From sequence record SRR31156797_10402: DNA of 51,441 nucleotides; one strand, 5' to 3'. This document shows, one piece after another, positions 7,420-51,352 of the stretch. Position 1 is the stretch's first letter. Each line of letters starts with the position of its first letter. The translations under genes and the position numbers were made by a program. Below the pieces are notes generated by a model. The model worked only from the letters and a program-made list of their open reading frames with translations, was not told where the DNA came from and did not search any database.

Positions 7420-8393
7420 GATTGTGCCCTCCTCACGGCTTCCTGTATTGCGCTTCCAATAAACAGCCCCATCATCCTTCTTTTATAAGACGGCGCGTAA
7501 TTTGACGTTTTGACCGGACTCGCCTCTTTGGATGCGATCTGATTTGCCTCTTCCAGGAGATCATCTCTCAGATTTTTTCCTTTCAGGAAGTCTTCAAGGT
7601 GACTGCCTCTCAAGGGCTTTCGATCCACAGCCGTGAAAGCCGCCTTGTATTCTTTTTTCTCCATGGATGCCCAAAAGGCTGTCCCTACAACAGGAAAATC
7701 GATACTTTCACGATTTGCAACTTTTTGATAGGTGGAGAACCCGTCCATGGCTTTTCCGGGAATAATAATCTCGGTCAGGATCTCTCCCTCTTTGAAATTG
7801 AGCGGAACTTTACCATTTCCATTAAAAAGATCTCCCAAGGGAATCTCCCTGGAATTATCTCTGCACTGTACAATAATCCTTGCATCCAACACCAGAAGAG
7901 CCGGCGCCACATCACCGCAGTAAGCAGCGTAACAGGTCCCTTTCTTATTTACGACGTGACAAATCTCTCCGCCCGCTTTGAAACAGGTGGGCCTGGCGCT
8001 TCGCCACCATTTGGATTGATTAAAATACTTGCATCTGTTTTGCTGGCATACATTTCCCCCTATGGTGCCCATGGTCTGATGATGGTAAGAGCCCACGGAA
8101 GCAGCAGCAGATGCAAGAACAGATAGGTTTTTTGCTATAATCGGATGTTCATATACCTTTTTTAGAGGTGTAAGGGCGCCGATCCTTATGTCGCCATTGT
8201 CCTGCAAAATGGCGTTTAGTCCAGGAATTTTCTTTATATTTACCACAATTGAGGGCAGTTCAACCCTGTGCTTCATGTTCGGCAGAATGTCAGTTCCACC
8301 AGCGAGAAATTTCGCACCGGATTCATGAAGCAAGATAGTTGAAGCCTCCTTGATGCTTTTAGGTTCCACATATCGGAATTTGGGCAATCTCAC
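7416..8393 (-). CDS. hcrB: FAD subunit with inserted [4Fe-4S] loop, 4-HBCR beta-like
   Basis: AGGTD, TIGGN, and C-X15-C-X7-C-X8-C insert (RCKYFNQSKWWRSARPTCFKAGGEICHVVNKKGTC); GTG start preceded by GGAGG. Confidence 0.8.
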   Translation of the reverse strand: MRLPKFRYVEPKSIKEASTILLHESGAKFLAGGTDILPNMKHRVELPSIVVNIKKIPGLNAILQDNGDIRIGALTPLKKVYEHPIIAKNLSVLASAAASVGSYHHQTMGTIGGNVCQQNRCKYFNQSKWWRSARPTCFKAGGEICHVVNKKGTCYAAYCGDVAPALLVLDARIIVQCRDNSREIPLGDLFNGNGKVPLNFKEGEILTEIIIPGKAMDGFSTYQKVANRESIDFPVVGTAFWASMEKKEYKAAFTAVDRKPLRGSHLEDFLKGKNLRDDLLEEANQIASKEASPVKTSNYAPSYKRRMMGLFIGSAIQEAVRRAQS

Positions 8394-8446
8394 AGCGAAC
8401 CTCCTTATTTTTCACATCTTAATCATTTTTAAAACATCAACCAACT

Positions 8447-8717
8447 TTCATAATATGCAATAGTATTTCAGTTCCAATGAATATATCATTGCCGGACACC
8501 CCTGTCAAGCCAAAACGAAACGCCACCCACGATAATTTCCGCGCGACTATCCTAGGGCGAATACCATGCGAAAAGCAGACAACAAATCAGCATAAATGCC
8601 GAAATCTGGTATTTTTTATGTCTTTACGGCGGTACATAAAGGGGCCTGTACATTTTTTTGTTGACAGAAGACCCGAACATATCATATGAAAATACAATCC
8701 ACCTTCACAATATGCAA
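8447..8717. promoter_or_regulatory. repeated quasi-palindromic operator candidates in divergent promoter region
   Basis: TTCATAATATGCAA (8447-8460) and TTCACAATATGCAA (8704-8717), 13/14 identical. Confidence 0.5.
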
Positions 8718-8804
8718 GTTTTAAGTTTGAAATACACTGAAATTTAATTCCAGTCTGGAATTTCTCCCGACTTTCGGATTGAGATATAATAAGAGGACTT
8801 CTCC

Positions 8805-10430
8805 ATGATTGATTTAGAATCTCTCCCATTGGGGCAGGTAATTCAAAAGGGGGCGGAATCCGCCCCAGCTAAAACGGCGGTTGTGTGCGAAAAGGAAAGA
8901 AAGACATATGATGAGATGAATGCCTTGTCGGATGCACTTGCCTCCGGCCTTGCAGCGCTGGGGATCCGGAAAGGCGATCGCATCGCCATTTTCATGCCCA
9001 ATTCAATAGAGTTAGTAACCGCATTTTACGCGCTTGAAAAAATGGGCGTTATTGTGGCCTGGGTAAATCCTCTGTATCGGCAGACCGAAGCTGAATTCAT
9101 ATTGAAAAACGCTGAAGCCCGCGGCGTCTTCATTTTCAGGGAATGGGAAGGGTGCGACTATCTCCAAATGATATATGGCATTAGAGACCGTCTTCCCGGC
9201 CTTGAATTCATTTTGGTGGCCGGAGAATGCGAAGATGGAAAGGTCTTTGAGTTCAACCAACTTTTGAAACAGGGAAAAGAACGTTCTTTTACGTCCCCTC
9301 CTATTAATACCAAAAACGATCTTGCCATGTTGATCTATACATCCGGCACCACAGGACGGCCCAAGGGCGCCATGATTTCCCATTATCAGGCCGTCAGGGC
9401 GGGCATGGAATACTCTTACGGCATCAATGCCCAGCCAAACGACATCTTTATCGGTTTTCTCCCAATGTGCCACTCGTACGGCTGCGGGGCTATTCTCATC
9501 CAACCGTTTCTCCTCGGGTCGACCGTGGCGATAATGGGAAAATTTGATCCGGAATCCGCTTTCAGAATCATGGAAGAGGAAAAAGTCACGATTCAATTGG
9601 GGGCGCCGGTCCACTATATTCTTGAATTGAATCAGACCATTCGAAAAAACTATAACCTCGCTTCCCTGAGGGCGGGCATGATTGCCGGCCAACCGGCGCC
9701 GGAAGGTTTGATTACAAGGGTCGAGGAAGAGATGGGAGTGTATCTGACCTCATTCTGGGGTGCATCGGAAGTAGGCCCCGGTTTGGGAATCAGATGTCCC
9801 TACCCTTCTCCACTTCATATTCGGGAGAGATATATCGGTAAACCCATCGAGGGTACGGAGGCTCGCATTGTAGACTTGGTCACGAGAGAAGAACTCCAGG
9901 ATGGGGAAATCGGAGAACTGACCCTCAAGGGCTGGCATGTCCTCAAAGGATACTGGGGAAATCCGGCTGAGACAAAAAAACAGATCGTTGACGGATGGCT
10001 GTCCATGGGAGACCTGGTCTCCCGTGAAAAAAACGGGTACCTGAAGATCTACGGAAGGAACAAAGACCTGATTAATCGCGGCGGTTATAAGATTTATCCA
10101 TACGAGCTGGAATCCTTGATCATCGATCATCCAAAAGTAGCACAGGTATGTGTCGTGGCCACCCCCAATCCGGTGCTGGGCGAAAGCATATGCGCCTGCG
10201 TGATCCCGGTGGAAGGCCAAACCATAACACTGACGGGGATCAGGGGTTTCCTGGAAGGAAAGATCGCGAAAAACAAACTTCCCAATGAGTTATGCATCAT
10301 GAAAAGCTTCCCAATGCTTTCGGGCGGCGTAAAAATCAAAAAATTCGGCGAAAACGGATTGGAAGAATTTGCAAAAAATAATCAAAACAGGGAGGGGTAT
10401 AGAAAACAAACCATTCAAGCTGCCACTTAA
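8805..10430 (+). CDS. class I adenylate-forming acyl/aryl-CoA ligase
   Basis: YTSGTTGRPKG, FWGASE, GWLSMGDL, GRNKDLINRGG, C-terminal GVKIKK lysine. Confidence 0.9.
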   Translation: MIDLESLPLGQVIQKGAESAPAKTAVVCEKERKTYDEMNALSDALASGLAALGIRKGDRIAIFMPNSIELVTAFYALEKMGVIVAWVNPLYRQTEAEFILKNAEARGVFIFREWEGCDYLQMIYGIRDRLPGLEFILVAGECEDGKVFEFNQLLKQGKERSFTSPPINTKNDLAMLIYTSGTTGRPKGAMISHYQAVRAGMEYSYGINAQPNDIFIGFLPMCHSYGCGAILIQPFLLGSTVAIMGKFDPESAFRIMEEEKVTIQLGAPVHYILELNQTIRKNYNLASLRAGMIAGQPAPEGLITRVEEEMGVYLTSFWGASEVGPGLGIRCPYPSPLHIRERYIGKPIEGTEARIVDLVTREELQDGEIGELTLKGWHVLKGYWGNPAETKKQIVDGWLSMGDLVSREKNGYLKIYGRNKDLINRGGYKIYPYELESLIIDHPKVAQVCVVATPNPVLGESICACVIPVEGQTITLTGIRGFLEGKIAKNKLPNELCIMKSFPMLSGGVKIKKFGENGLEEFAKNNQNREGYRKQTIQAAT

Positions 10431-20320: not shown

Positions 20321-21967
20321 ATGGGCAAGAGAATTATCGTCGATCCGATTACCCGAATAGAAGGTCATTTGCGAATTGAGGTTGAAGTTTCAGGCGGAAA
20401 GGTGGTCAATGCCTGGAGTTCCGCACAGATGTTCCGGGGCATAGAAATCATATTGCAGGGGAGAGATCCGCGGGATGCCCCCCTCTTCGTACAACGGTCT
20501 TGCGGGGTCTGCACCTACACCCACTACCTGTCATCCATGAGGGCCGTGGAGGATGCCGTGGGTGTCACCATTCCCAAGAATGCGCGCATCATGCGAAACC
20601 TTCTTCATGGAGCACAGTTCCAGCAGGACCATATCACCCACTTCTATCAGTTACATGCCCTTGACTTTGTGGACGTGGTGGATGCCCTCAAAGCCGATCC
20701 CAAGAAAACAGCCGCCCTTTCAGATAATGTGAGCAATGATACCCACGGTGGAACCGCTTACTTCAAGCAGGTGCAGCAACGGATCAAGACCTTCGTGGAC
20801 AGCGGTCAGCTGGGCCTTTTCGCCAACGGTTACTGGGGAAGCTCCGCGTACAAGCTGCCGCCGGAGGCCAACCTGATGGCTGCGGCCCACTATATTGAAG
20901 CCCTTCGTATTCAAGCGAAGATTGTCCGTATGCATGCCATTTTCGGCGCCAAGAATCCCCATCTGCAGGCCCTGGCCGTGGGCGGTATGACCAGCGTGAG
21001 GGACTTGAGCCCCGACCGCATTGCCGAATTCCTCTATATCTGGAAACAGGCCCAGGATTTTGTGCGCAATGTCTACATTCCCGACCTGGTGACCATTGCA
21101 TCCTTCTACAAGGACTGGGGAGCCATCGGGGGGACCTCCAACTTCCTGGCCTGGGGTGATCTTCCCATGAGCGAAAAAGAGCCCGAAAGCCTTTTTCTGC
21201 CTCGCGGGGTCATCATGAAACGGGATCTCAAGGGCGTTAGAATGGCGGATCCTGATAAAGTGACCGAGCATATCGATCGATCCTGGTATGAAGGCAATAA
21301 GGCCAGGCACCCCTACAATGGGGAAACCAAGCCCTTCCAGGGCGATCCCAAGTATGACACCAACGCTGAGTATTCCTGGTCCAAAGCGCCCCGCTACGAA
21401 GGCGAGGCCTGCGAGGTGGGGCCCCTGGCGCGGGTCCTGGTGGCCTATGCATATGGCAAGAAAGATTTCCAGGGCGTTGTGGACAGCACCCTGAAGAAGC
21501 TCAATATCCCCGTTACAGCGCTCTTCTCCACCTTGGGCCGGACGGCGGCCCGGGGCCTTGAAACCCTGGTGATCGGTAACGCCATGGAAGGCTGGGTCAT
21601 GGAGTTGGTGGAGAACCTGAAAAGTGGCGACACCGCCACCTGCGCCGAATGGACCATGCCGAAAAGCGGTAAAGGGTGTGGCTTGAATGATGTGGCCAGG
21701 GGTTCTCTGGGTCACTGGATAGAAATTGAAGACAAGAAGATCAAAAATTACCAGTACGTGGTACCCTCCACCTGGAACCTGGGGCCCCGATGTGAGAAAG
21801 GCAAACTGGGACCCGTTGAGGAAGCCCTCATCGGAACTCCCGTGGCCGATCCCAAAAGGCCGCTTGAAATTCTCAGGACCGTCCACTCATTTGATCCCTG
21901 TATCGCCTGCGGGGTACACGTGATCGATCCTGACTCCAATGAGGTTTATAAAATTAAAGTAGTTTAG
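20321..21967 (+). CDS. hynA: [NiFe] hydrogenase large subunit
   Basis: DPITRIEGH, L1 RSCGVC, L2 DPCIACGVH with C-terminal cleavable extension. Confidence 0.95.
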   Translation: MGKRIIVDPITRIEGHLRIEVEVSGGKVVNAWSSAQMFRGIEIILQGRDPRDAPLFVQRSCGVCTYTHYLSSMRAVEDAVGVTIPKNARIMRNLLHGAQFQQDHITHFYQLHALDFVDVVDALKADPKKTAALSDNVSNDTHGGTAYFKQVQQRIKTFVDSGQLGLFANGYWGSSAYKLPPEANLMAAAHYIEALRIQAKIVRMHAIFGAKNPHLQALAVGGMTSVRDLSPDRIAEFLYIWKQAQDFVRNVYIPDLVTIASFYKDWGAIGGTSNFLAWGDLPMSEKEPESLFLPRGVIMKRDLKGVRMADPDKVTEHIDRSWYEGNKARHPYNGETKPFQGDPKYDTNAEYSWSKAPRYEGEACEVGPLARVLVAYAYGKKDFQGVVDSTLKKLNIPVTALFSTLGRTAARGLETLVIGNAMEGWVMELVENLKSGDTATCAEWTMPKSGKGCGLNDVARGSLGHWIEIEDKKIKNYQYVVPSTWNLGPRCEKGKLGPVEEALIGTPVADPKRPLEILRTVHSFDPCIACGVHVIDPDSNEVYKIKVV

Positions 21968-26991: not shown

Positions 26992-28149
26992 TTAAGCAGC
27001 CGCTTCCTCTTTAATGGAGACGGCAATTTTGTACAGAATGGTCAGAACAAAAAATCCTACCGCCAGAACGCCGATGGTGATCAGTATCTCAAGAGTGGTA
27101 GGCCAGTAAGGTGTTACGGTGTCAAACATGTTGGGCGTAAATCCGCCCACGATCAGCCCGAGCCCCTTATCAATCCAGGTCGCGATAATCACTGAAATAC
27201 ACGCAACCGCCAACGTATCCTGGTTACGCCGTGTGGCCGGCACGATCAACAGAACCAGAGCAATCACTGCAAATCCCGTAGCGGTCCACATCCAGGGGGC
27301 CAGTTTTCCATACCCGTCCAGGCCATGGAAAAGAAATTCGATGGAATGCATATGCCCCGGGATCTGGCTGTAAAAAGCGGTAAATATCTCAAGCAGAAAG
27401 AAAAAAACATTTAAGATCATGGCATAGGCGATAATACCGCCCAGCGTCCGGAGCTGTTCCTTGCCGGGATCAAATTTGGTAACCTTCTTGACGATCAGGC
27501 ACAGCAGCACCAGCAGGGCCGGTCCCGCACAGAAGGCGGAGGAAAGGAACCGCGCCGCCATGATGGCGGTCAACCAAAAATGCCGACCGGGAATACCTGC
27601 ATACAGAAATGCCGTCACCGTATGAATGGTGAAGGCCCAAGGGATGGAAATATAAGCCAGAACCTTGATCCATTTCTGATACTTCACCCCTTTTCTTTCA
27701 GCCGCCAGCACGTTCCATCCCACGACGATATTGAGCAGCAGATAAACGTTCAGGACAATCATGTCCCAGAACAGAATGGAGTTGGGCGTAGGATAAAGAA
27801 TAACGTTCATGATCCGGACCGGATTTCCCAGATCCACGAACACAAAGAGAAGACACATGAGGATGGCGGCAATGGCCAGAAATTCACCCAGAATGGTAAT
27901 CCTGCCAAAAGCCTTATAATCATGCAGGTAATAGGGCAGAACCACCATTACACCGCCTGCGGCGATGCCCACGAAGTAGGTGAGCTGCCCGATATAGAGC
28001 CCCCATGATACGTCTCTGCTCAAACCCGTAATTCGAAGGCCTTCAAAATACTGATAGATGTAACATCCGGCACCTACCCCAATCAAAACCAACAGAAAAA
28101 CGAGCCATGACCAATACCCTGTTGTTCCTTTTAGTGCTCTGTCAAGCAT
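26992..28149 (-). CDS. dsrP: DsrP, NrfD/PsrC-family membrane subunit
   Basis: TGLSRDVSWGLYI, VDLGNP, IHTVTAFL, multiple TM; last gene of dsrMKJOP. Confidence 0.92.
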   Translation of the reverse strand: MLDRALKGTTGYWSWLVFLLVLIGVGAGCYIYQYFEGLRITGLSRDVSWGLYIGQLTYFVGIAAGGVMVVLPYYLHDYKAFGRITILGEFLAIAAILMCLLFVFVDLGNPVRIMNVILYPTPNSILFWDMIVLNVYLLLNIVVGWNVLAAERKGVKYQKWIKVLAYISIPWAFTIHTVTAFLYAGIPGRHFWLTAIMAARFLSSAFCAGPALLVLLCLIVKKVTKFDPGKEQLRTLGGIIAYAMILNVFFFLLEIFTAFYSQIPGHMHSIEFLFHGLDGYGKLAPWMWTATGFAVIALVLLIVPATRRNQDTLAVACISVIIATWIDKGLGLIVGGFTPNMFDTVTPYWPTTLEILITIGVLAVGFFVLTILYKIAVSIKEEAAA

Positions 28150-28973: not shown

Positions 28974-29359
28974 TACTTTTTCTCCTCCGGCGCAATATGA
29001 CAATCCCAGCAGTAAGGATTAACGCTCAAATAATTGTGACATTGGTCACAGAATTTGGTTTTGTCCGAATGGCAATCCATGCAGGTCACCTGCAGGCTCT
29101 TATAATAGACCTTGCCATCAGCCGCTTTGTAATAGCGCTCACCATCCCTCACAGCCGTGTGCCGCCATTCGTCCAGCATGGAAAAGTGTGATTCCCTCAT
29201 ATAGGTCTTCGGCGCCACACACACTTTTGCTTCCTTGGCTTTTTCCGTTAACTGCGGGTCGGGCGCTTTGGCGGAAGACCCCGCGTTATAGATAAAAGGG
29301 GAAAGGAACAGACCGATACCAATAATCAGGCCAACAATAATCTTGCCTCCATCATACAT
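28973..29359 (-). CDS. dsrJ: DsrJ triheme cytochrome c
   Basis: CV...MRESH, CMDCH, CDQCH, CWDCH; start MYDGG at 29359. Confidence 0.92.
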   Translation of the reverse strand: MYDGGKIIVGLIIGIGLFLSPFIYNAGSSAKAPDPQLTEKAKEAKVCVAPKTYMRESHFSMLDEWRHTAVRDGERYYKAADGKVYYKSLQVTCMDCHSDKTKFCDQCHNYLSVNPYCWDCHIAPEEKK

Positions 29360-30983
29360 CCTCTTCATCCTCCATTCCCGGCAACGGTTCTAAACGTAAA
29401 TCAGTGGTTCGTTTCTTCTCTCCATCCAGTATCAAGGCATTGCCCACCAATTCGTGAAGTCCCGTGACGTCCATTCCCGGCACCCAATAATCCATGGATG
29501 TGGGCAAAACCGCCCGGTCGATGGCGCAGATGCAGGCCAGCATGTTGACGCCGTACTTTTCATGGACATATTTCACGGCATTGGCCCTGGGTAGCCCCCC
29601 CCGCATGCGAAGCTCCATGTCTTCGCCGGCATTTAGGCCCGAACCGCTGCCGCAGCAGAAGGTCTGCTCGCGAATGGTTTCAGGGGGCATATCATAGAAA
29701 TTGTTGCAGACACTGTTCAAAACGTATCGCGGTTCCTCAAGAAACCCCATTCCCCTTGCCGTGTTGCAAGAATCGTGAAACGTTACGGTTTTGTTATCAT
29801 TACGGCTTGGGTCAAGTTTGAGTTTATTGTTTTTGATAAGATCCGCCGTGAACTCCACCAGATGAATCATCTTTGTGGACTTGGCATTTTCGAAAACCGT
29901 CCCCGTAATGGGGGAGACCGGTGTTTCCAGGAAGTCGGCCGGTCCGTTCCAAGTGTCCATATACTGATTCAAGACCCGCCACATGTGACCGCATTCACCG
30001 CCGATGATATATTTGACCCCCAAGCGCTTGGCCTCATGGTACATTTTGGCATTCAGCTTTTTGGCCATTTCATGGGATGTGAAAAATCCGAAATTGCCCC
30101 CCTCTGAAGCGTAGGTGCTCCAGGTGATATCGAGTCCTAAGCCTTTAAGATAATGGAATAGTATAAGATATCCCATGGCCGTATAGGTTCCGGGATCGGC
30201 AAAGACGTCTCCTGATGGCGTTAAAAAGAGGATCTCGGCGCCTTTCCGGTTAAAATCCGGCTCAACCCTGACGCCGGTGACATCCTCAATTTCATCCACG
30301 AAGAAATCGATCATATCCACAAAGGCATGGGGCTGTATCCCCAGATGGTTACCGGTGCGGCTGCAGTTGGCAACCGGGCCCGCAATCCAGTCGATGTTGA
30401 GGCCCACAAGATTTGTCAACTCCCTGCCCAGGATGGTGATTTCCGCCGTATCAATGCCGTAGGGGCAAAAGAGCGAGCAGCGACGGCACTCGGTACATTG
30501 ATAGAGGTAATACCAAAGCTCTTTGAGGGTATCCTCCGTTAACTCGCGTCCCCCTGCAAATTTTCCCAAGAATTTGCCGGCGGTGGTGAATTCCCCGCGA
30601 TAAATGGACCGGAGAAGTTCCGCCCGCATGACCGGCATATTTTTGGGGTCGCCCGATCCGATGAAAAAATGGCACTTATCGGCGCAGGCACCGCATCGCA
30701 CGCAGATATCCATAAAAATCTTCAGGGAGCGATATTTGTCCAGCCGGTCCTTAAATCCTTCCAGAATAATGCTCTTCCAGTTTTCCGGGAGTTGCCAGTC
30801 ATCATCCGTGGGATTCCACTCTTTCGCAAAAGGCATCCCCACGGCGTTGGTATTCTTGGGCTTGGCGCCGTAACAATAGATGCCCGGCTTGATCTCCGAT
30901 TTCTTGTTCAGCCACCCTTGCTCAAAGAGAGGCCGATAATGATCAATTGTTGCAGTTTCTGTTGCTTTGGGGGTATCTGCCAT
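29352..30983 (-). CDS. dsrK: DsrK, HdrD-like Fe-S catalytic subunit
   Basis: CVRCGACADKC, CTECRRCSLFCP, GECGH, FHDSC, TFCCG, CAID. Confidence 0.95.
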   Translation of the reverse strand: MADTPKATETATIDHYRPLFEQGWLNKKSEIKPGIYCYGAKPKNTNAVGMPFAKEWNPTDDDWQLPENWKSIILEGFKDRLDKYRSLKIFMDICVRCGACADKCHFFIGSGDPKNMPVMRAELLRSIYRGEFTTAGKFLGKFAGGRELTEDTLKELWYYLYQCTECRRCSLFCPYGIDTAEITILGRELTNLVGLNIDWIAGPVANCSRTGNHLGIQPHAFVDMIDFFVDEIEDVTGVRVEPDFNRKGAEILFLTPSGDVFADPGTYTAMGYLILFHYLKGLGLDITWSTYASEGGNFGFFTSHEMAKKLNAKMYHEAKRLGVKYIIGGECGHMWRVLNQYMDTWNGPADFLETPVSPITGTVFENAKSTKMIHLVEFTADLIKNNKLKLDPSRNDNKTVTFHDSCNTARGMGFLEEPRYVLNSVCNNFYDMPPETIREQTFCCGSGSGLNAGEDMELRMRGGLPRANAVKYVHEKYGVNMLACICAIDRAVLPTSMDYWVPGMDVTGLHELVGNALILDGEKKRTTDLRLEPLPGMEDEEDV

Positions 30984-30985
30984 GG

Positions 30986-32056
30986 TTACTCCTTTTCTCC
31001 TTGTTCGGCTGTTTCGTCAAGCCCTTTATCCACGGGCAGACCAGCTTCTATCATAGCCTCTCTGAACTCATCTTCGTATTCCGCATAGGTGTGAAACTTA
31101 ACAGGGTAATTCCATGGATTCACATGCCTGACAAAACGGTTGTTATTGGACATATTCCTTGTGGGACTCAGGAATATTCCGCTCAGATGCATGAGTTTGC
31201 TGAACGGAAAATAGGCGATCAAAACGCACAATACAAAGAGGTGGATATAGAATAGTACACCGATCCCGTCGGGCACGGCGGGAGAAAACTTAAAAAGCCC
31301 GATGACCAGTTCCTTGACTTTGGTAATGTCAACCCGTAACCAATAACGCATGAGCATGCCGGTAAAACCAAGGGTCAGAATCAGCATCAGTGGAAAATAA
31401 TCGGCCGGAAGTGATAAATAGCGGATCTGAGAGTAAAGAATCCTCCTGAGCAATAGCCAGGTAACCGCCGCCATGAGCAGCATGTCGGTTAGATACACCC
31501 CGGGAAGGCCGAAACCGTTGAAAGGCGCCGCACCCATCTGCATGAATCCGTCAAGGCTCTCCAGAACGAAAACAAAACCCGGCACCGGCTCCATGAAAAA
31601 TCGAAAGTGTCTAAGGAAAATCACGAGGAAAGAATAATGGAAGAGGATCGCCGCCAGCCAGAGCCACTTTTCCCACTCGTAGTTGATTCTGGGTGCGCCA
31701 TCCACTTTGCTGTACTCAAGCCGCGTATTTCGAAACAGAGACCTGAAGGTGAGAACTTCGAACAACATTCTCAACACCACGCCGCCCTTCCCTTTGGGAT
31801 TGTCAATGGGGTTGCTCTTAATCCAGGGGAAGGACCACATCTGGCCGGCCGTGGTGGGAATCCGGTAAGGGACCGGCGAACGTCCCCAACCCAGAACACG
31901 CACGATGATGCCCACAATGAAAGTGGCCAGGGCCGCATAAGGAATGACAACCCCGAAGAGGGTCTTCAAATCCAGTGCCCCCACACCAATCCAAGGGACC
32001 AAAACCACGACCATCACCGCGAAGGATGAAAACAGAATACTCAATACAAAATTCAT
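30986..32056 (-). CDS. dsrM: DsrM, NarI-like cytochrome b subunit
   Basis: PVPYRIPTT, FHYSFLVIFLRHFRFF, YIHLF...FPFSKLMH, SPTRNM. Confidence 0.93.
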   Translation of the reverse strand: MNFVLSILFSSFAVMVVVLVPWIGVGALDLKTLFGVVIPYAALATFIVGIIVRVLGWGRSPVPYRIPTTAGQMWSFPWIKSNPIDNPKGKGGVVLRMLFEVLTFRSLFRNTRLEYSKVDGAPRINYEWEKWLWLAAILFHYSFLVIFLRHFRFFMEPVPGFVFVLESLDGFMQMGAAPFNGFGLPGVYLTDMLLMAAVTWLLLRRILYSQIRYLSLPADYFPLMLILTLGFTGMLMRYWLRVDITKVKELVIGLFKFSPAVPDGIGVLFYIHLFVLCVLIAYFPFSKLMHLSGIFLSPTRNMSNNNRFVRHVNPWNYPVKFHTYAEYEDEFREAMIEAGLPVDKGLDETAEQGEKE

Positions 32057-43631: not shown

Positions 43632-43918
43632 GGGGTGGACGGCAGGCTGCTAATCTGAAGTTCCTTATCGAGGAGGCCGCATATGACGAAGTTTTCAAAC
43701 CTACAAAACGGCAAGTTTAGAGGGTTCTTGAAGGAATTTGTTAACAAACCGGTAATGCTCCCAATACAACAAGGCCTACGATAAGATTATGGAACTTCAT
43801 AAGCAAGCTGATAGGGAGCGAATCTATGGGAAATTTCGCTCAAATCAGAATCTATAGTCAGAAACCTCGCATGCACCCCTGGATAACAATTACCAATTTC
43901 ATCGCGATTTACGCGGCT

Positions 43919-44725
43919 TCACAAGGTTTCGGATTTACCTTGGCACGAGGAGCGCTTTGTTAGCATCTTGATAAAACGAGCAAATTTCTTTCGAGCTTCA
44001 TTGCCCATAGTTATTTCGTGGGACGTAGTTTCCGAAACCCATGATGGTATGGATATATCATTTGCTTTCATGCTTTTGATGCAATTCTTGGTTATTACTC
44101 CTCGAGAGGTGCTTTCGCCAAAAGTAGCCAAATTATTGATAGTCACAAAAATTTTATGAGACTTTGGTTTTTCTATTTGCTCCTTAAAAGAGTCCATCGT
44201 TTTGGCTGAGGGTATCTTTTTTGGAAATAGCTCAAATAGATAACGTATTACTTTGACCTTCAAATACTGATGTATCCATATTTGCTTATAATTCTTTCTT
44301 TCTAGGTAAACGTCACCTTCAGTATTGATCATTTTTGTGCCAGTTAGATTTTCATCTATCAGCATGCCTCTGCACCGGCAAAATAATAGTCCGCACATAT
44401 CTTCTATATTATCTGTAAATAACCATTGATGTATTTTTGCAATTTTTTTAGTATTAAGTTGAATTGGATACTTATCGTCTATACACCAATAAATCATCTC
44501 TTCATCATCCAAACCATCAAGTAATGTTAGAATTGTACCTCTAATGTCAGAAGGACATTGATGATACTGAACTCTATTAGTATGTATGGTTGGAGACAAT
44601 TCTTGATATGGAACTTGGAATATATATGGATGAGAAGGCCAAAGAGTTTCGTAACTAAGAATCATGTGATCCGTAAATTTTCGATATTTGTCATAAGTTA
44701 ACACAATCGCTTTAATTGGTGTCAT
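43919..44725 (-). CDS. AT-rich hypothetical protein, possibly GT-A glycosyltransferase-like
   Basis: 268-aa ORF; N-terminal AIVLTYD strand and IYWCIDD acidic motif as in GT-A folds; function uncertain. Confidence 0.5.
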   Translation of the reverse strand: MTPIKAIVLTYDKYRKFTDHMILSYETLWPSHPYIFQVPYQELSPTIHTNRVQYHQCPSDIRGTILTLLDGLDDEEMIYWCIDDKYPIQLNTKKIAKIHQWLFTDNIEDMCGLLFCRCRGMLIDENLTGTKMINTEGDVYLERKNYKQIWIHQYLKVKVIRYLFELFPKKIPSAKTMDSFKEQIEKPKSHKIFVTINNLATFGESTSRGVITKNCIKSMKANDISIPSWVSETTSHEITMGNEARKKFARFIKMLTKRSSCQGKSETL

Positions 44726-44737
44726 ATGGGGCCTTTC

Positions 44738-44816
44738 TGTTAACGCTAAAGCTCATGGACGACAATTGAGAGCATCGGAATTGACAGACGAGTACAGTGT
44801 TTGTCTAGCGTTACTG
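44738..44816 (-). repeat. attC-like imperfect inverted repeat
   Basis: TAACGCTA (44741-48)...TAGCGTTA (44806-13); minus strand ends CATGAGC-TTTAGC-GTTAACA just before RBS and ATG of next gene. Confidence 0.35.
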
Positions 44817-44836
44817 AAATATTACAAATATTTAAA

Positions 44837-45631
44837 TTAACCTAACCATTCTCTGCAATCCCAGTTTAATTCTAACTCCAAATCTTTTATCGTATTTTTA
44901 AAAATTGATATAAGGTAAACCCTCTCTTTATCATTCATGCTTAATACATATGGTATTGAATGTACATTCTTCTTTGCAATTCTATTGAATTTTGCTACAC
45001 GCAGAAACGCGCACACACGATTAAGGGTTTCTTCTGGCTTTTGTTTTAAATCTTCACTTTTTATAATTAAGATTCTATTTTTAGGGAAGTAGACCCAAAG
45101 CCTTCTTAGCTGTTTTAAATAGAATCCCCTCTCAATATAAGAATATCTTCTGTCTTGCTTTGGAAGTGTCTCACAGCACCTTTTCTTTTCCTTTTGTATA
45201 GCCTCCCAAAACGACAAATTGTCAGCATGTATTGAGCGATTCATATTCCAATGTGAATAAGCTCTTTCGATGGGGTTTCTTAAGAGAACGATTAGTTTCA
45301 TATTAGGATTGTATTCCCAAATTCTTTTTGGTGCATCTTTCCAATACATGTAAATAGGAGTTGCTTCGCCCAGAATCTTATGAGATTTTTTAGGGCTGAA
45401 CCAAGAAAGATACTTGGAATAGTCAGGTTTGTCGTTAGAAAAGAACCCTTCGTTATCAAAGAAATGGACTTCTTTTTTGTTCGCCATACAAATTTCAGGA
45501 TGCATCCTCAGGTAGGCGTCTAAGGCTGAAGTCCCTCCCTTCTGAGTGCCACAGATAATAAAATCAACTGTTCGTTTGGTTGCGAAAAGCGTTTTAGCTT
45601 TTCGCTTTATCCTCATGATTACCTGTCTCAT
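44837..45631 (-). CDS. PAPS-dependent sulfotransferase (heparan-sulfate sulfotransferase-like domain)
   Basis: 5'-PSB GTQKGGTSAL, KEVHFFD, GEATPIY, 3'-PB LRNPIERAYSHW; AT-rich. Confidence 0.88.
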   Translation of the reverse strand: MRQVIMRIKRKAKTLFATKRTVDFIICGTQKGGTSALDAYLRMHPEICMANKKEVHFFDNEGFFSNDKPDYSKYLSWFSPKKSHKILGEATPIYMYWKDAPKRIWEYNPNMKLIVLLRNPIERAYSHWNMNRSIHADNLSFWEAIQKEKKRCCETLPKQDRRYSYIERGFYLKQLRRLWVYFPKNRILIIKSEDLKQKPEETLNRVCAFLRVAKFNRIAKKNVHSIPYVLSMNDKERVYLISIFKNTIKDLELELNWDCREWLG

Positions 45632-45652
45632 AAAGTATTATCCATGTGAACG

Positions 45653-45899: not shown

Positions 45900-46907
45900 C
45901 TAACCGGTTACTAACTCAGTGATTTTTTTGGCTGTTGCTACGACTTCGGTCAAACCCTCAGGCCGAAATACCCTAAAAACCGGGATTTTTTGAAGCAGTG
46001 TGCCCACCTTGAAGAACTCTCTGGCGCGCATATCATCATTCAAGACGTAAGGGGCATAGGTGTGCGCAGTAACATGCACCATTGCCTCTTTGGGTTCCAA
46101 ATGTTCAATGCGAACGGTTTTCTCGCTTTCTCTTGGCGCCAACACAAAAACAGCCGCCAAGGGAACCGGTTGGCTCTGAAAATGGAACCGGCGACCATGA
46201 TAATCTTTATTCAAGTCCAGATACCGTTTTTCAAAATCGTTTAGGACTGGAGGAAAGTCTAATGAGTTCGGGATGTTGAGCGAATTAATGGTTGTTTGCC
46301 ACAAACGCAAACGAGGATATCCAGGTTGAACTATGATGTCTGATTCATTCTGATTCAGGGGCGCAATGTCGTCGCTAAGAATTGGATGTCCCTGGTAAGC
46401 CAGTTGCGCTATCAAGGTTGATTTGCCCGCGCCCTTGTCGCCAATCACTGCCACTGTCCGACCGGCAATAACCACTGCTCCGGCGTGTAATGCCAGAATG
46501 TCTTGTTGGCGCAAGGCGCAACCGATGACCGGGCCCAAAAGATAAGCGACAACATTGGTGTCGGCGACTGGTTCACGTTGGTGAATTTCAACGCACCGCC
46601 CATTTTCTTTTACCAAAAAGTCTACCCAGCCCCGAATTCCTCCGAAATGGCGAAGACACAAACCGTGTTCGTCGGCTAAGCGCCAGACTTGCAGATAAGG
46701 CGGCCCTTGCTGTGTCATTGCCGGGCTTTGGTAGAGTAAGTCAGCAATGATTGGTACATCTTTGGTCGGTTCAAAGTCAATGGAAACTTGTCCATTTGGG
46801 ATTTCTCCCCCTTGAAAACGCCATAAACCAGGGATTTCCCGATCGGCGATGATGTGGAACCCGTAAAGCTGATAAGCGTGAGGATATTCAGGGGGCGATG
46901 TGGTCAT
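45900..46907 (-). CDS. HPr kinase-like lasso peptide kinase (PadeK/ThcoK type)
   Basis: LALHAGAV catalytic His, Walker A GDKGAGKST, ILSDD, PGYPRLRLW; alternative start 46943. Confidence 0.85.
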   Translation of the reverse strand: MTTSPPEYPHAYQLYGFHIIADREIPGLWRFQGGEIPNGQVSIDFEPTKDVPIIADLLYQSPAMTQQGPPYLQVWRLADEHGLCLRHFGGIRGWVDFLVKENGRCVEIHQREPVADTNVVAYLLGPVIGCALRQQDILALHAGAVVIAGRTVAVIGDKGAGKSTLIAQLAYQGHPILSDDIAPLNQNESDIIVQPGYPRLRLWQTTINSLNIPNSLDFPPVLNDFEKRYLDLNKDYHGRRFHFQSQPVPLAAVFVLAPRESEKTVRIEHLEPKEAMVHVTAHTYAPYVLNDDMRAREFFKVGTLLQKIPVFRVFRPEGLTEVVATAKKITELVTG

Positions 46908-47943
46908 AGATACGTCCGGTTTGTACCGTTTGATGCAGATCAATCACAGCCTGGCTGGCTTTTTTCAGTTGTTGGTCAATTTCCGGCACCCCAATCACCG
47001 GGCGTGTTGGCAGCGGATTACTCTCTGCCAGCGCCGCCAATAGTCTGAAAAAGTATTGGCGGGTGGGGTTGCGCTGTTTTTGGCGTTGCCGGACAATGGC
47101 TTTGTATTCATCGGTTGAGTATTTTCGATAGGGCCGGTAAGCGCGATAATCACGGATAGTGCGGCATAGCGAAGCAGGCAGCCAGGATTTGATCATTTGC
47201 TTGAGTTTGTGCTTGAACGCAGGCGTTGACGTTGGTTGGCTGAAAGCCAGAAAACTGAAGCCGCCCAAATGGATGAGCGATGGAATATGCCGGTAGATTA
47301 CTGTTTCACCGCGGGCTTGCAGTAGCAAATTGAGCGCTTTCCCGGTGTCGTAAATGGTCTTTTCCATATTCAGGCTATGAAATTGCTGCCGGATTTCCGG
47401 CGTCAATTGCGACCAGTGTCTCTCTTCAAAGCCGGTTTTTAATTGGTTCATCACCCCCTGTAAGGCCGAGGTCCGGTAGATAGAGAAAGGGCTGCTTCCC
47501 AGGCATAATCCGTTTTCGGCGGTGGTGTGCAAACCGCTCATGATCTGAAAACCTTGAGGCAGTATTTCATCGTGGGCAGTAACCCACAGCGGTGGAGCGG
47601 CAAAGGTGGCGGCGTTATTTGCCAGATTGGATTGCGCTGTTTCCATGAATGGACCGGTCGCCAGAATGTCGGAGTCCATAAAAGCAAAATAATCGGTTTG
47701 GTGCATTTGCTGCAAAAGGTTCAGAACTCGACTATGGCGCAAACTGGTTCCCCCCGGCAGATTGCAGTAGCTCAAACGGGGATGTTGTTGGCAAAGCTTC
47801 TCTAAGAAATTCTGTTCCGGCGGGAAGCAGCCGTTGCTCACCAATCTGAAAGCGCAATCTGACCAGTGCAGCAAACTCCACACAAAAAAACTGAGATACT
47901 TTACGGTGCCGGGGGTGTAAACAATGTTAAAGGTAACCGTCAT
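46888..47943 (-). CDS. putative GT-A fold glycosyltransferase
   Basis: N-terminal beta strand, LVSNG, HSRVLN...YFAFMDSDI (DxD), late HLGG; translationally linked to neighbours. Confidence 0.6.
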   Translation of the reverse strand: MTVTFNIVYTPGTVKYLSFFVWSLLHWSDCAFRLVSNGCFPPEQNFLEKLCQQHPRLSYCNLPGGTSLRHSRVLNLLQQMHQTDYFAFMDSDILATGPFMETAQSNLANNAATFAAPPLWVTAHDEILPQGFQIMSGLHTTAENGLCLGSSPFSIYRTSALQGVMNQLKTGFEERHWSQLTPEIRQQFHSLNMEKTIYDTGKALNLLLQARGETVIYRHIPSLIHLGGFSFLAFSQPTSTPAFKHKLKQMIKSWLPASLCRTIRDYRAYRPYRKYSTDEYKAIVRQRQKQRNPTRQYFFRLLAALAESNPLPTRPVIGVPEIDQQLKKASQAVIDLHQTVQTGRIYDHIAP

Positions 47944-47949
47944 TTGCTT

Positions 47950-48663
47950 CTAAGGTCTAAATAAGGAGTTTGCGTTCATTAAATATTCGTAAATCGGACG
48001 GCAAGAGTGCGGCACTTGGTCTGGCGTAAAATGGTAATGCGCCAGTTTATGATTGACAAAACGCTGTAGTTTTCTGAGCTTGGGAGATAGACCAAGCCGA
48101 TGCGCAATTTGCGCTATGTCCTGCAAATAGCTGCTCTTATCCTGCATATCATATTCAATGAGCGGGAAAGGGCGCCGTTGGTGGCGCGCCATCAAGATCG
48201 CGTTGCAGTGGATCCACAACTCCAGAGCGTGGCTTTCCCTGAGGCTGTTGCGGTGCATTAAAGAGCGCGCTACCGCCAAGGGGTGTCTGAAGGTACCCAC
48301 CAGCACGCAAGGGGTTGGAGCCAAGTTTTCCCAGTGATCCAGCAGCAGCAGAGTTCGAGGGTCTTTAAATCCGCCCGACGATTTACTGGTGAGCGATTGA
48401 GCGATTTCCAGTAACTGCTGGCGATGAAAAGGATGCAACTGAACCGGTTCTTGCGGCGGCTGATGCCAACTTGCCCGGTTTAGTCCCAGAATTTGATCGT
48501 GAATTTTGACGACATCAGGTCTTTCAAAATAGCCTTTGGCATTAAACCGCCCGGTGCGCCGCACATCGCCCAGATACAACCCGCAACGCTCCAATGCGCC
48601 AGCCAAACAACTGGTGCCGCTACGATGCATCCCCAGAATTACTACCAATTGAGGCGTGGCCAT
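47950..48663 (-). CDS. sulfotransferase family protein
   Basis: GMHRSGTS PAPS loop, NAKGYFE, FKDPR, RHPLAVARSL; ATG abuts the cyclase stop. Confidence 0.85.
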   Translation of the reverse strand: MATPQLVVILGMHRSGTSCLAGALERCGLYLGDVRRTGRFNAKGYFERPDVVKIHDQILGLNRASWHQPPQEPVQLHPFHRQQLLEIAQSLTSKSSGGFKDPRTLLLLDHWENLAPTPCVLVGTFRHPLAVARSLMHRNSLRESHALELWIHCNAILMARHQRRPFPLIEYDMQDKSSYLQDIAQIAHRLGLSPKLRKLQRFVNHKLAHYHFTPDQVPHSCRPIYEYLMNANSLFRP

Positions 48664-50463
48664 CTACAGGGTTCCATTTTCGGCGCGCAATAAGAGCAGA
48701 CCTTGCATCATCCCTTTGAGAAGGGCAAAGGTTTGCTGCGTTACCGACCAATCCAGGGGAGTCTGTAATTGCTTCAGCGCAGTATCCATTCGCGGCACAT
48801 CCAGATATTCCTGAACCAATGGGGAACGGTCAAAAGAATCAAGAACTGCCGCCGCTTCATCGTAGTGATCCCGCACCCGGCAGGCAATATCGGCGGATTG
48901 CAGACCCCGGCAGCCCTGCCACAAAACATTGTGTGGTAATTTGCCTTTCATCGCCAGGCGAACCAGTAATCGCTCTTGTCCGTTCCGGGTAAATTGTTCC
49001 TGGGGCAGGCCCAGACAAAACTCAATGATGCGTTTATCAACGGGGGGGTCGGTAATTTGCAGGCCAAAAGCAATTCCAAAGGCAGCAGAAGCTGCCTGCG
49101 CCTTGCCGGTGCGGAAGTATTTGAACAGACCGTTGTACTCATTGCCCGGTTTCTGAACGGAGGTAAACGACGTGTCAGCTTGCAGAAGACTACGCAGCCT
49201 CTCCCGGCGCACAAACGTATGCTCCTGATGGTTTCGGGCCCGATAGCGGTCTGCCCAACTTGCCGGTAACAGGGGCTTAACCACTTGGCTCTTAATGGTT
49301 TGAAAAATGGAAGCGTGCTGTTGCCGCTGCCAGGCGATTATCTCACTGCCCCAACGCCGCCAGTCCCCGTGCTTTTGCAGCGCACGCAGATAGGCAGACC
49401 GGTCTCCGTTGAAAGAGATGGTAAAATTACCGCCCCAACCGCTCAGTAGCGTAGTTATCCCTTGAGACGCCGCCGCTTCAAAAGAAGCTAACGCCCAAGA
49501 CATATTACCCGCCCCGTGCACCGGTTCGGCAAGTATCTCCAGACTTCTGTGCAATGCTGCAATGGGGCTGACATCCGCCGTATTGATAAAGCGGATATCA
49601 ATATTGGGGTATCGTTGGCCAATGGCTTTAACCCAAGGGCTTTCATCGCCGCAGCGGGCGGGCAGAATGACAGATGCCGGATCATATTGCGGCACGGCAC
49701 TGAAGGCAATTAACCGTTTGCCTCGTTTGGTCAGCGCAGGTGCGGCCAGCGCCGCCACCGAACTGGAATCAAGCCCGCTGCTCAGTAAGATGCCGGTCTG
49801 GCCGTTCGCCGGTAAACGGTCTCCAACCGCTTGCCGGTACAGATCAGTAAAGACGTCCAGATAGTCTTCGTCGCGCGGGTAGCGCACTGCGGGCGCCTCT
49901 TGCGGATGCCAGTAACGCCAGCCTTCAATTCTGTCACGCGTTACCAACATCGCATGGGCCGGCGGAAGCCGGTGAATATTCTGGTAAAAGGTCACATCTC
50001 CGGCTAGTCCCAGCCAATTCGCCGCCAGGGCGGACAGATTGAGTTCAACCGGTACCTGCGGTTGTTGCAGCAAGCCTTTCATGGTGCTGGCGAAGGCAAA
50101 GATTTGGTCCGAATGGTAATAATAAAGCCCGCTGTTGCCAAAATGATCGCGGGCAAGGAAAAGGTGTTGTTGTTTCGAATCCCAGATGGCAAAAGCCCAG
50201 TCGCCCAGCAAATGGCTTGCAGCATCTAGCCCCCATCTTTTATAAACGTTTAAAACTAAAGCAGAATCGTCCGTACTTTGCGCCTCTGTCCTTGACAAGC
50301 CAAAAAAAGAAACCAAATCCGTACGATTATCCAGTCGTCCGTAAAACCAAGCCCCATATTCGCCAATCTGCCGATCATCATTTGGCGAAGGTGTGGTTTG
50401 ATCAAATTGAAACGAGCCCTGTAACAAAGTATTGGCTGGATGCTGCCGCGCTGTCCTGTGCAA
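48664..50463 (-). CDS. lasso peptide cyclase (asparagine synthetase-like, protein C)
   Basis: GRLDNR, LGDWAFAIWD, ARDHFG, LSSGLDSS ATP loop, SGWGGNFTIS, DKRIIEFC; no N-terminal glutaminase Cys; next to precursor and B1/B2. Confidence 0.9.
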   Translation of the reverse strand: MHRTARQHPANTLLQGSFQFDQTTPSPNDDRQIGEYGAWFYGRLDNRTDLVSFFGLSRTEAQSTDDSALVLNVYKRWGLDAASHLLGDWAFAIWDSKQQHLFLARDHFGNSGLYYYHSDQIFAFASTMKGLLQQPQVPVELNLSALAANWLGLAGDVTFYQNIHRLPPAHAMLVTRDRIEGWRYWHPQEAPAVRYPRDEDYLDVFTDLYRQAVGDRLPANGQTGILLSSGLDSSSVAALAAPALTKRGKRLIAFSAVPQYDPASVILPARCGDESPWVKAIGQRYPNIDIRFINTADVSPIAALHRSLEILAEPVHGAGNMSWALASFEAAASQGITTLLSGWGGNFTISFNGDRSAYLRALQKHGDWRRWGSEIIAWQRQQHASIFQTIKSQVVKPLLPASWADRYRARNHQEHTFVRRERLRSLLQADTSFTSVQKPGNEYNGLFKYFRTGKAQAASAAFGIAFGLQITDPPVDKRIIEFCLGLPQEQFTRNGQERLLVRLAMKGKLPHNVLWQGCRGLQSADIACRVRDHYDEAAAVLDSFDRSPLVQEYLDVPRMDTALKQLQTPLDWSVTQQTFALLKGMMQGLLLLRAENGTL

Positions 50464-50490: not shown

Positions 50491-50634
50491 TTACGAAGAG
50501 CCTCCCATTACGCCGTCATTCGAGAAGCCGGAATCACCTGTTTGTGTTTGTTGTTGGGCGGTTCCGTAGTCTTCGATCTTTGGAGGAGTATATCCCTTTT
50601 TGTCGGTTTGGTTTTGGGTAGTCTCTTTATTCAC
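50491..50634 (-). CDS. lasso peptide precursor (protein A), 47 aa
   Basis: RBS GGAGG 6 nt before GTG; MNKETTQNQTDKKGYTPPKIEDYGTAQQQTQ-TGDSGFSNDGVMGGSS; leader fits YxxPx(L/I)xxxGxxxxxT; Asp at core position 9. Confidence 0.9.
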   Translation of the reverse strand: MNKETTQNQTDKKGYTPPKIEDYGTAQQQTQTGDSGFSNDGVMGGSS

Positions 50635-50657
50635 GATTGTCCTCCATAAAATAGGTT

Positions 50658-51089
50658 TTAATCCATTGATTTGCCAAAGGCGTACTCAAAGGCGGTGTAT
50701 TTTTGCCGCACCCGGGGGCCGGCATTCAGGGCTGCGCCTTGATACTCTACCCAGGCGTGGGCCTGAAAAGCGCCTTGGTGCTGGCGGACGCCAACGCGTA
50801 ACTGGGTGTGAATGTCACGTCGCTGTAACAACCACCACAACAACACCGATTGCGACAGGCAATTGCCCCGGTACAGAGCCCGTCTTTTTGCCCAGCGCAT
50901 CATTTGGCCGCAGTGTTGGGCAACGGATGCCTGTTGAACACCGTTGACTGGGCGACGCCAGTTGGGAACGTGCTGTAACAGGGACAATGTTCGTTGTAAG
51001 CCTAAAGCCCACAAACCAAACGCCATCGGCGGCAACAACAGGCTGATTTTTAGTTTTGGCCAAAGCGTATTGATTTTGTGCTTGATCAT
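50658..51089 (-). CDS. lasso leader peptidase B2 (transglutaminase-like)
   Basis: NCLSQS catalytic Cys, LRVGV, FQAHAWVE. Confidence 0.92.
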   Translation of the reverse strand: MIKHKINTLWPKLKISLLLPPMAFGLWALGLQRTLSLLQHVPNWRRPVNGVQQASVAQHCGQMMRWAKRRALYRGNCLSQSVLLWWLLQRRDIHTQLRVGVRQHQGAFQAHAWVEYQGAALNAGPRVRQKYTAFEYAFGKSMD

Positions 51090-51352
51090 ACCGCTTCAAG
51101 AATTACTAGATTTCGTTCTGCCAGACCGTTGACCAGATTTTCCACATCCCGGCGTAAGGTGTCTGTATCAATCTCGTACTCTTCCTGCATGGCGGCAACC
51201 ACGCGTTCGGTATCGCCATATTCGTTCAATAGCTGCCACATTCGGGCGCCGGCTTCATTCAGCCCGTGATATTGTTCATTGTTCAAGTTGAGGAGAATTA
51301 TCTCATCGTGCAGTTCTTGAAATAGTATGTCGGTTGGGATTGTGATTTTCAT
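51086..51352 (-). CDS. PqqD-family RiPP recognition element B1
   Basis: 88 aa; EIILLNLNNEQYHGLNEAGARMWQLL...EYEID...RDV...L; ATGA overlap with B2. Confidence 0.92.
   Translation of the reverse strand: MKITIPTDILFQELHDEIILLNLNNEQYHGLNEAGARMWQLLNEYGDTERVVAAMQEEYEIDTDTLRRDVENLVNGLAERNLVILEAV

Follow-up and report, generated by a model that had tools for sequence, protein, structure and literature searches.

A candidate lasso-peptide precursor gene between B2 and C in a split-B cluster of a putative sulfate-reducing bacterium

The gene between B2 and the cyclase gene

Which peptide do the lasso-peptide enzymes encoded near one end of this DNA act upon? The stretch analysed, called the window below, comprises 51,441 nucleotides (nt) of sequence record SRR31156797_10402 and carries on its minus strand a split-B (B1/B2) lasso-peptide cluster, in which a 47-codon open reading frame (ORF) lies between the B2 and C genes. 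Without this small gene the cluster amounts to enzymes lacking a substrate; with it the product is predictable and can be looked for. Judged from its sequence and surroundings, ORF 50491-50634 (-) is very probably the structural gene A of the cluster. The features concerned are, with lengths in amino acids (aa):

50491..50634, minus strand: precursor gene A, 47 aa plus TAA, GTG start; family profile 59.4 bits
50641..50645, minus strand: Shine-Dalgarno sequence GGAGG, 6 nt 5' of the precursor GTG, from the minus-strand read
50542..50634, minus strand: leader, residues 1-31, with K12K13, Y15 (-17), P18 (-14), I20 (-12), G24 (-8), T30 (-2) and Q31 (-1)
50494..50541, minus strand: predicted core, residues 32-47, TGDSGFSNDGVMGGSS, with a putative boundary; ends Ser-Ser
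51086..51352, minus strand: B1, PqqD-type recognition element of peptides that are made ribosomally and modified post-translationally (RiPPs), 88 aa; PF05402, 2.5e-18; 4-nt overlap with the start of B2
50658..51089, minus strand: B2, transglutaminase-like leader peptidase, 143 aa; PF13471 Transglut_core3, 7e-19; NF033537 lasso_biosyn_B2, 72.4 bits, cutoff 33
48664..50463, minus strand: C, asparagine-synthetase-like lasso cyclase, 599 aa from its first start (TTG, 50463); Asn_synthase, 3.6e-26; GATase_7, 4e-22

In the ORF listing of the window the precursor is identical to the 47-aa peptide quoted in a preliminary description of this DNA, which had given no strand; the strand is minus. The ribosome-binding site (RBS) and GTG start claimed there were both recovered upon reading that strand (GGAGG at 50645-50641, a spacer of 6 nt, GTG at 50634-50632). 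This GTG is the earliest ATG, GTG or TTG codon of the stop-to-stop frame 50494-50685 (-), the sole other methionine codon being that of residue 43, within the core, and the gene closes with TAA at 50493-50491. It is spaced 23 nt from the end of B2, whose own TAA lies upstream at 50660-50658, and 27 nt from the start of C, all on one strand.

The leader spacing Y15-x2-P18-x-I20-x3-G24-x5-T30-Q31, also described previously, is exact. With Q31 taken as -1, Y15 and P18 occupy the Tyr(-17) and Pro(-14) positions of the TyrxxProxLeu leader pattern, Ile20 stands in place of Leu at -12, and T30 provides the penultimate leader threonine (-2). A candidate ring acceptor, Asp40 (GAC, 50517-50515), falls within the 7-9 range of core positions for such Asp or Glu residues, being residue 9 counting from Thr32 (ACA, 50541-50539) and residue 8 counting from Gly33.

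The identities that had been assumed for the flanking genes B1, B2 and C were substantiated by Pfam and NCBIfam matches. In a PDB search the B1 profile matched TbiB1 (5v1u) at 2.6e-24, and C matched NCBIfam lass_lactam_cya at 2e-88, which is under the cutoff of that model. The full operon order is B1, B2, A, C, sulfotransferase-like, GT-A-like and HPr-kinase-like, all on the minus strand and packed so that genes overlap or abut. Catalytic-looking motifs are intact in B2 (GNCLSQS and AHAWVE), in C (SSGLDSS PP-loop) and in the kinase-like protein (GDKGAGKST), and all enzyme ORFs are full length.

Chance occurrence was assessed with the pattern Y..P.[LIVM]...G.....T. followed by 12-30 residues to a stop codon, sought in six frames of the window and of 300 first-order-Markov simulations of it. 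The pattern was found once in the real window. Eight of the 300 simulated windows held at least one match and a single one (1/300) held a match with, additionally, an Asp or Glu at core positions 7-9, counts that ignore both the strand and the placement in the 170-nt gap between B2 and C. The precursor ORF exceeds chance expectation.

No hairpin above the level of shuffled sequences was found after the precursor stop (z=0.41). A sigma-70-like site (TTGGCA-18 nt-TATTTT, 50677-50648, minus strand) sits within B2 at its 3' end, a short way upstream of the precursor RBS, and its frequency is at shuffle level, with no excess (one found, shuffle mean 1.3). A look-up of sequencing runs that contain this stretch showed a single DNA run, possibly its source, and no RNA run.

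Relatives of the peptide and its place in the operon

A search for relatives of the cyclase, taking one genome per species, led to 20 loci, and 72 cyclase-similar loci were examined overall. The nearest cyclase relative (38% identical) is encoded in a gammaproteobacterial metagenome-assembled genome, at locus L001, where the gene order B1-B2-A-C-sulfotransferase-like is that of the window. The 48-aa peptide of this locus (L001:9376-9522) shares 37% identity with that of the window, the residues kept being K12, K13, Y15, P17, P18, G24, Q28, T30, Q31, G33, G36, D40, S46 and S47, and is labelled by NCBI as a 'lasso RiPP family leader peptide-containing protein' (P0001, MCH9697825.1). Both precursors possess the leader KKxYxPPx[IL]xxxGxxxxxTQ, an Asp at core position 9 and a C-terminal Ser-Ser. 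They differ in that the L001 core is Gly-first and its peptide passes the leader model NF033521, whereas the window peptide is Thr-first and shows no match to it. The L001 contig ends after a second sulfotransferase gene, and the comparison stops short of the kinase and glycosyltransferase (GT) genes. Among the 72 loci a family peptide at E<=0.01 was present only in L001 and L016-L018. One metagenome locus with the order kinase-B1-B2-(50-aa ORF)-C contains at L044:2307-2459 (+) an ORF with WxxPxF that ends in Ser and is without Thr at -2; it possibly represents another kind of precursor, likewise placed between B2 and C, and is not counted as confirmed.

The translated search for homologous precursors that had been proposed earlier was run with a two-peptide profile over 1.84 billion representatives, and gave 69 proteins at E<=1e-3. 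Sixty-six of the 69 are peptides of at most 110 aa, every one with the motif. The window peptide belongs to a large family of 39-72-aa peptides with the leader KKPYxxPxLxxYGxxxxxTQ. When the window's own peptide is added, 63 of 67 members have Thr at -2. The closest peptide, P0007, shows 64% identity over 42 residues. In a 17-row alignment (A3), the rows of which were selected partly for C-terminal Ser, the invariant residues are K13, Y15, P18, G24, T30 and D40, and the window peptide keeps all of them. Word-index homologue searches for the peptide and for B1 returned no candidates.

Some of the matches have unusual forms. Tandem copies of the leader motif occur in P0002 (199 aa, four matched stretches), P0003 (382 aa, five) and P0005 (69 aa, two), and in others, P0008 (102 aa) being listed among them, the motif is followed by a longer C-terminal extension. 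Such multi-motif and extended proteins are possibly variants of the family precursors that are fused or carry more than one core.

A hidden Markov model (HMM) was built from 64 related peptides of the public collection, that is, the 69 matches minus P0002, P0003 and P0061 (199, 382 and 1160 aa), P0008 (102 aa) and P0005, which has two leaders. The model leaves out the window peptide, with the caveat that the 64 peptides had initially been gathered by the two-row profile that included it. When 1440 stop-to-stop frames of at least 20 aa were scanned, frame 50494-50685 (-) scored 59.4 bits (E=1.6e-17) and the runner-up 3.8 bits (E=3.7). The NCBIfam leader models NF033521 (lasso_leader_L3) and NF033528 (lasso_cyano) gave no match to the window peptide even at E<=10; NF033521 scored 24.3 bits (cutoff 19) with the L001 peptide and 13.8 bits with P0007. 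The exact window peptide is absent from a collection of 15 billion proteins which, together with the miss by the leader models, fits its description as unannotated. The curated lasso-leader models overlook part of this precursor family. By its sequence the precursor is a genuine member of the kinase-associated split-B lasso family, a kind already described and with a sister peptide already annotated at NCBI, and the finding as such is an ordinary genome-mining result.

The remark that a position after B1-B2 is less common agrees with a survey in which alignment A3 was compared with 401 genomes of the L001 phylum and 401 of the phylum to which L004, a Cyanobium record, belongs, samples that are not exhaustive. 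Ten of the 401 genomes of the L001 phylum were matched at E<=1e-3, with the order A-B1-B2-C in seven, C-A in two and B1-B2-A-C in one, the L001 genome itself. In the L004 phylum 17 of 401 were matched; the usual order was C, one to three precursor copies and the kinase, and B2-A-C was found in none of the 17 within 1.5-kb flanks. Three Chloroflexota loci have the order B1-B2-C-A-kinase. Two or three tandem precursor copies are often seen in the cyanobacterial loci (L088/L104, L093/L108, L101, L103, L105/L109/L110 and L111); where the cyclase falls in the flanks (L088/L104, L093/L108, L105/L109/L110) the copies lie between it and the kinase-like gene. In most of the tandem copies the core has a last residue other than Ser.

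The survey bears on the notion that the ORF is a chance frame in the B2-C spacer and that the real precursor gene lies upstream of B1, past the window end. The window does stop 89 nt upstream of B1, a precursor at the operon head is the arrangement in seven of the ten matched proteobacterial genomes, and the peptide is missed by the NCBIfam leader models. This explanation is nevertheless close to refuted by the simulation control (1/300), by the independent profile (59.4 bits, the next frame reaching 3.8), by the homologue that L001 encodes in the corresponding place and by the RBS at ideal distance.

Where the core starts

Given that the ORF is gene A, the product depends upon the point at which the leader is removed. 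The leader register Tyr(-17)/Pro(-14)/Leu(-12) is reported to be constant in the available text of PMC10368454. It makes Q31 the last leader residue, Thr32 core residue 1 and Asp40 position 9. The boundary Q31|T32 implied by the preliminary description agrees with this register, and is preferred here to a start one residue later, at Gly33, which keeps some standing. Core residue 1 is probably Thr32, which would give a nine-residue Thr1-Asp9 ring and a seven-residue tail, GVMGGSS. Before tailoring, the macrolactam would have a calculated monoisotopic mass of 1455.557 Da with the Thr start and of 1354.510 Da with the Gly start. For the linear cleavage products the calculation gives 3570.690 Da (leader) and 1473.568 Da (core) with the Thr start, and 3671.737 Da and 1372.520 Da, respectively, with the Gly start.

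Were the mature core to begin at Gly33 (GDSGFSNDGVMGGSS), the ring would be an eight-residue Gly1-Asp8 ring, the leader would have 32 residues and end in Thr, and the conserved Thr would stand at -3. This alternative is the less likely of the two starts, although a serious one, and the family peptides speak on both sides. The residue following 'T-x' in the 67 peptides is Gly in 25, Thr in 16, Ser in 8, Ala in 7 and another residue in 11. A small residue is looked for at core position 1; this position would hold Thr under the -17 register, as in the 16 Thr-first peptides, or Gly if cleavage occurs one residue later. Ala, Ser and Cys are also accepted at position 1 of lasso cores.

In 13 of the 16 Thr-first peptides Gly comes next, in line with a Gly33 start. 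Their first Asp or Glu at position 7 or later is residue 9 in 11 peptides, 8 in four and 10 in one, while in the 25 Gly-first peptides it is residue 8 in 16, 9 in six, 10 in two and 7 in one, a shift of one residue. Counting from Gly would bring all 16 into the known 7-9 range and remove the 10-residue outlier P0013. Gly is, moreover, the position-1 residue used or named in the available portions of PMC10368454 and PMC7533575. A search of the literature for an N-terminal threonine in a lasso peptide gave no match by that wording, which does not settle whether a Thr1 lasso peptide has been published.

On the other side, a start at Gly33 breaks the -17/-14/-12/-2 register, which is held in 63 of the 67 peptides. 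The Thr-first peptides P0045, P0048 and P0054 carry Ser or Met at position 2. Two Gly-first peptides (P0032 and P0053) are also 10-residue outliers, so that the single outlier P0013 weighs little, and the L001 alignment pairs Thr32 with the Gly1 of that peptide and Asp40 with its Asp9.

Maturation, tailoring genes and host

With Thr32 as the favoured first core residue, maturation of the precursor would, by analogy with its family, proceed in three steps. The PqqD-type B1 would bind the leader through Y15, P18 and I20 (-17/-14/-12), the B2 cysteine protease would cleave after Q31, with T30 at -2, and the cyclase C would activate Asp40 with ATP and close the ring onto the newly exposed N-terminal amine of Thr32. 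For the first of these steps the B1-peptide complex was predicted, with a score of 0.51 against 0.08 for the best of three controls. The runs agreed in at least 90% of contacts, the predicted local distance difference test (pLDDT) value of the partner was 56, and custom alignments were not used. Of 78 solved complexes 51 reach the mark for complex scores, as do 2 of 108 mismatched pairs; where the score is 0.60 or less, it is reached by just 5 of the 78 solved complexes and by all four of the passing mismatches (of 180). The prediction therefore lends weak support to binding of the leader by B1. Since B1-leader complexes have already been solved (TbiB1, 5v1u/5v1v), the pass may reflect likeness to these and not binding.

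Downstream of C the cluster continues with genes for putative tailoring enzymes, followed by two ORFs of doubtful membership:

47950..48663, minus strand: sulfotransferase-like protein, 237 aa, GMHRSGTS loop; begins directly after the C stop, with no gap; Sulfotransfer_3, E=0.004, below cutoff
46888..47943, minus strand: GT-A-fold glycosyltransferase-like protein, 351 aa; invariant D90-S91-D92; Pfam GT2, E=0.018
45900..46943, minus strand: HPr-kinase-like P-loop protein, 347 aa, GDKGAGKST; Hpr_kinase_C, 1.3e-4, and TIGR04352, 7e-9, both below cutoff; HPr kinases in PDB, 7e-4
44837..45631, minus strand: second sulfotransferase (Sulfotransfer_1), 264 aa; PF00685, 3.4e-21; in a low-GC stretch, cluster membership uncertain
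43919-44725: unnamed 268-aa ORF with no family match; in the low-GC stretch, cluster membership uncertain

The cluster thus includes an HPr-kinase homologue, recognized by matches that fall below cutoff. Its relatives in tblastn searches adjoin lasso genes in many loci, with E values down to 1e-44. The core ends in Ser-Ser, and Ser is the last residue in 20 of the 67 family peptides and in 11 of the 16 Thr-first ones. In paeninodin, ThcoA and SyanA the C-terminal Ser is (poly)phosphorylated by HPr-kinase homologues which act on the linear precursor (PMC8498205, PMC9266682, as far as their available text goes). By analogy, the kinase-like protein of the window would most likely phosphorylate a Ser of the linear precursor, the best candidate being the C-terminal Ser47. 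The lasso kinases possess conserved His-Lys-Asp-Asp catalytic residues according to the accessible part of PMC9266682; in the window protein the P-loop alone was read.

Features of the 237-aa sulfotransferase-like protein matched sulfotransferase clusters of the Atlas in 30 of 30 cases (best score 0.98), and the protein is 45% identical to that encoded in the same position in L001. A structure model made from a two-row alignment had a pLDDT of 41.2 and was unusable. In both the window and L001 the gene directly adjoins C or overlaps its end, which is the best argument for its action on the peptide. The available text of PMC8498205 speaks of sulfotransferase genes in lasso clusters solely as putative ones.

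The 351-aa protein has 29 homologues (32-50% identity), mostly annotated as 'hypothetical', in which the DSD motif is invariant. The GT-like protein P0078 and the precursor-family peptide P0013 are both listed with a longest contig of 158,934 bases, a hint at co-occurrence and no more. This family matched no PDB sequence, and no Pfam family above cutoff. An AlphaFold (AF2) model (pLDDT 91.6) was matched by Foldseek to the PDB structures of SpsA, TarP, K4CP and RmlT (E ~1e-7), with a target-normalised template-modelling (TM) score of ~0.55 for SpsA. On the basis of this model the protein is GT-A-like, a member of an unnamed family. The sulfotransferase-like and GT-A-like enzymes probably further decorate the peptide.

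As read from its sequence, the precursor shows the structural features of its kind except plug residues; the curated leader model misses it, and the residue predicted to come first in its core is unusual. Several observations weigh against the interpretation as a working gene A whose product is phosphorylated at its C-terminus. The tail GVMGGSS lacks a bulky plug, offering just Val11 and Met12 to lock a nine-residue ring; the leader models fail with the peptide, and Thr would take the place of Gly at position 1. No exporter gene was seen by scans of the window in the visible part of the cluster, and further precursor copies are possible beyond the window end. As regards the kinase, its best-scoring tblastn relatives in the sample are cyanobacterial (E 1e-39 to 1e-44) and have as neighbours precursors of which most end in a residue other than Ser, and BsfK phosphorylates Ser3, not the C-terminus (PMC10368454, from the text available). 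These last two points leave the phosphorylation site uncertain.

The want of a bulky residue in the tail and of a visible exporter could also mean that this genuine family member is no longer matured, in a relic or silent cluster, or that its product is branched-cyclic and unthreaded. The related bsf cluster, according to the accessible text of PMC10368454, never yielded a mature lasso peptide in heterologous hosts. Such an outcome is nonetheless improbable, because the enzyme ORFs are all full length with their motifs, the peptide retains each invariant position of its family, the RBS is strong, and the genes are packed as tightly as in a working operon.

Several of the systems already described resemble that of the window. 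The comparisons below are with those parts of the cited papers that were available. Paeninodin, ThcoA and SyanA share with it the split B1/B2, an HPr-kinase-like gene and a Ser-ending precursor. The window differs from them in gene order, in that no D exporter was seen, in its added sulfotransferase-like and GT-A-like genes and in the Thr at predicted position 1, and the similarity of its kinase to the Pfam and NCBIfam models is below cutoffs. BsfA and BsfK of Bradymonas sediminis (PMC10368454) likewise combine YxxPxL at -17 to -12 with a kinase-tailored precursor, and in that organism B1 has a dual role, assisting the action of the kinase. A deltaproteobacterial-type host is common to both, that of the window carrying DsrMKJOP. 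The two peptides differ at -2 (Ile in BsfA, Thr in the window peptide), in the ring, which is Gly1-Asp8 in BsfA while the window peptide has its Asp at 9, at the C-terminus (Asp against Ser-Ser) and at residue 3, a phospho-Ser in BsfA where the window peptide has no Ser.

In the pseudomycoidin system a kinase and the nucleotidyltransferase-like PsmN are present, and the C-terminal Ser is phospho-hexosylated (PMC8498205, PMC9266682). As in the window, the genes for B1, B2 and C are accompanied by those for a kinase and an enzyme of sugar-transfer type, an arrangement suggestive of a single Ser being decorated in layers. The second enzyme of the window differs in having a GT-A fold with DSD and no nucleotidyltransferase homology in the searches run, and sulfotransferase-like genes are added.

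What is noteworthy in the window is that a predicted core which is Thr-first, Ser-ending and plug-less occurs together with kinase-like and GT-A-like genes and a sulfotransferase-like gene next to that of the cyclase. The cluster points to a small subfamily in which a sulfotransferase-like gene immediately follows the cyclase gene. A bolder reading, which we consider rather unlikely, is that of an uncharacterised kind of lasso peptide with a Thr1-Asp9 isopeptide ring and a plug-less Gly/Ser tail, the thread being held and the activity set by a decoration of the C-terminus for which the kinase-like, GT-A-like and post-cyclase sulfotransferase-like proteins would all be needed. Phospho-, glycosyl- and sulfo-groups on Ser46/Ser47 would be an example; that these decorations might serve as the plug is speculation. 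If true, this would be the first sulfated lasso peptide, and from a sulfate-reducing bacterium.

Past a 268-nt gap after the kinase-like gene the GC content drops from ~0.52 to 0.33-0.36. This low-GC stretch (43900-45650), which holds the Sulfotransfer_1 gene and the 268-aa ORF, may have been acquired on its own, as a piece lying at the cluster's end. Beyond the cluster lie unrelated plus-strand genes, among them those of an HD-domain protein and a branched-chain amino-acid ABC importer. Genes elsewhere in the window bear on the type of host:

26992-28149: DsrP, component of DsrMKJOP
29352-30983: DsrK, component of DsrMKJOP
30986-32056: DsrM, component of DsrMKJOP
20321-21967: NiFe(Se)-hydrogenase large subunit, 562.4 bits, cutoff 600

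DsrM, DsrK and DsrP scored 524.7, 729.8 and 476 bits, all over their cutoffs, and a protein resembling the alpha subunit of 4-hydroxybenzoyl-CoA reductase scored 746.9 bits (cutoff 994.55). Because of these Dsr, hydrogenase and reductase-like genes we infer that the host is a sulfate-reducing bacterium. The region 4663-10430, in which the 4-hydroxybenzoyl-CoA reductase alpha-like protein is encoded together with an acyl-CoA ligase, hints at anaerobic aromatic-acid metabolism.

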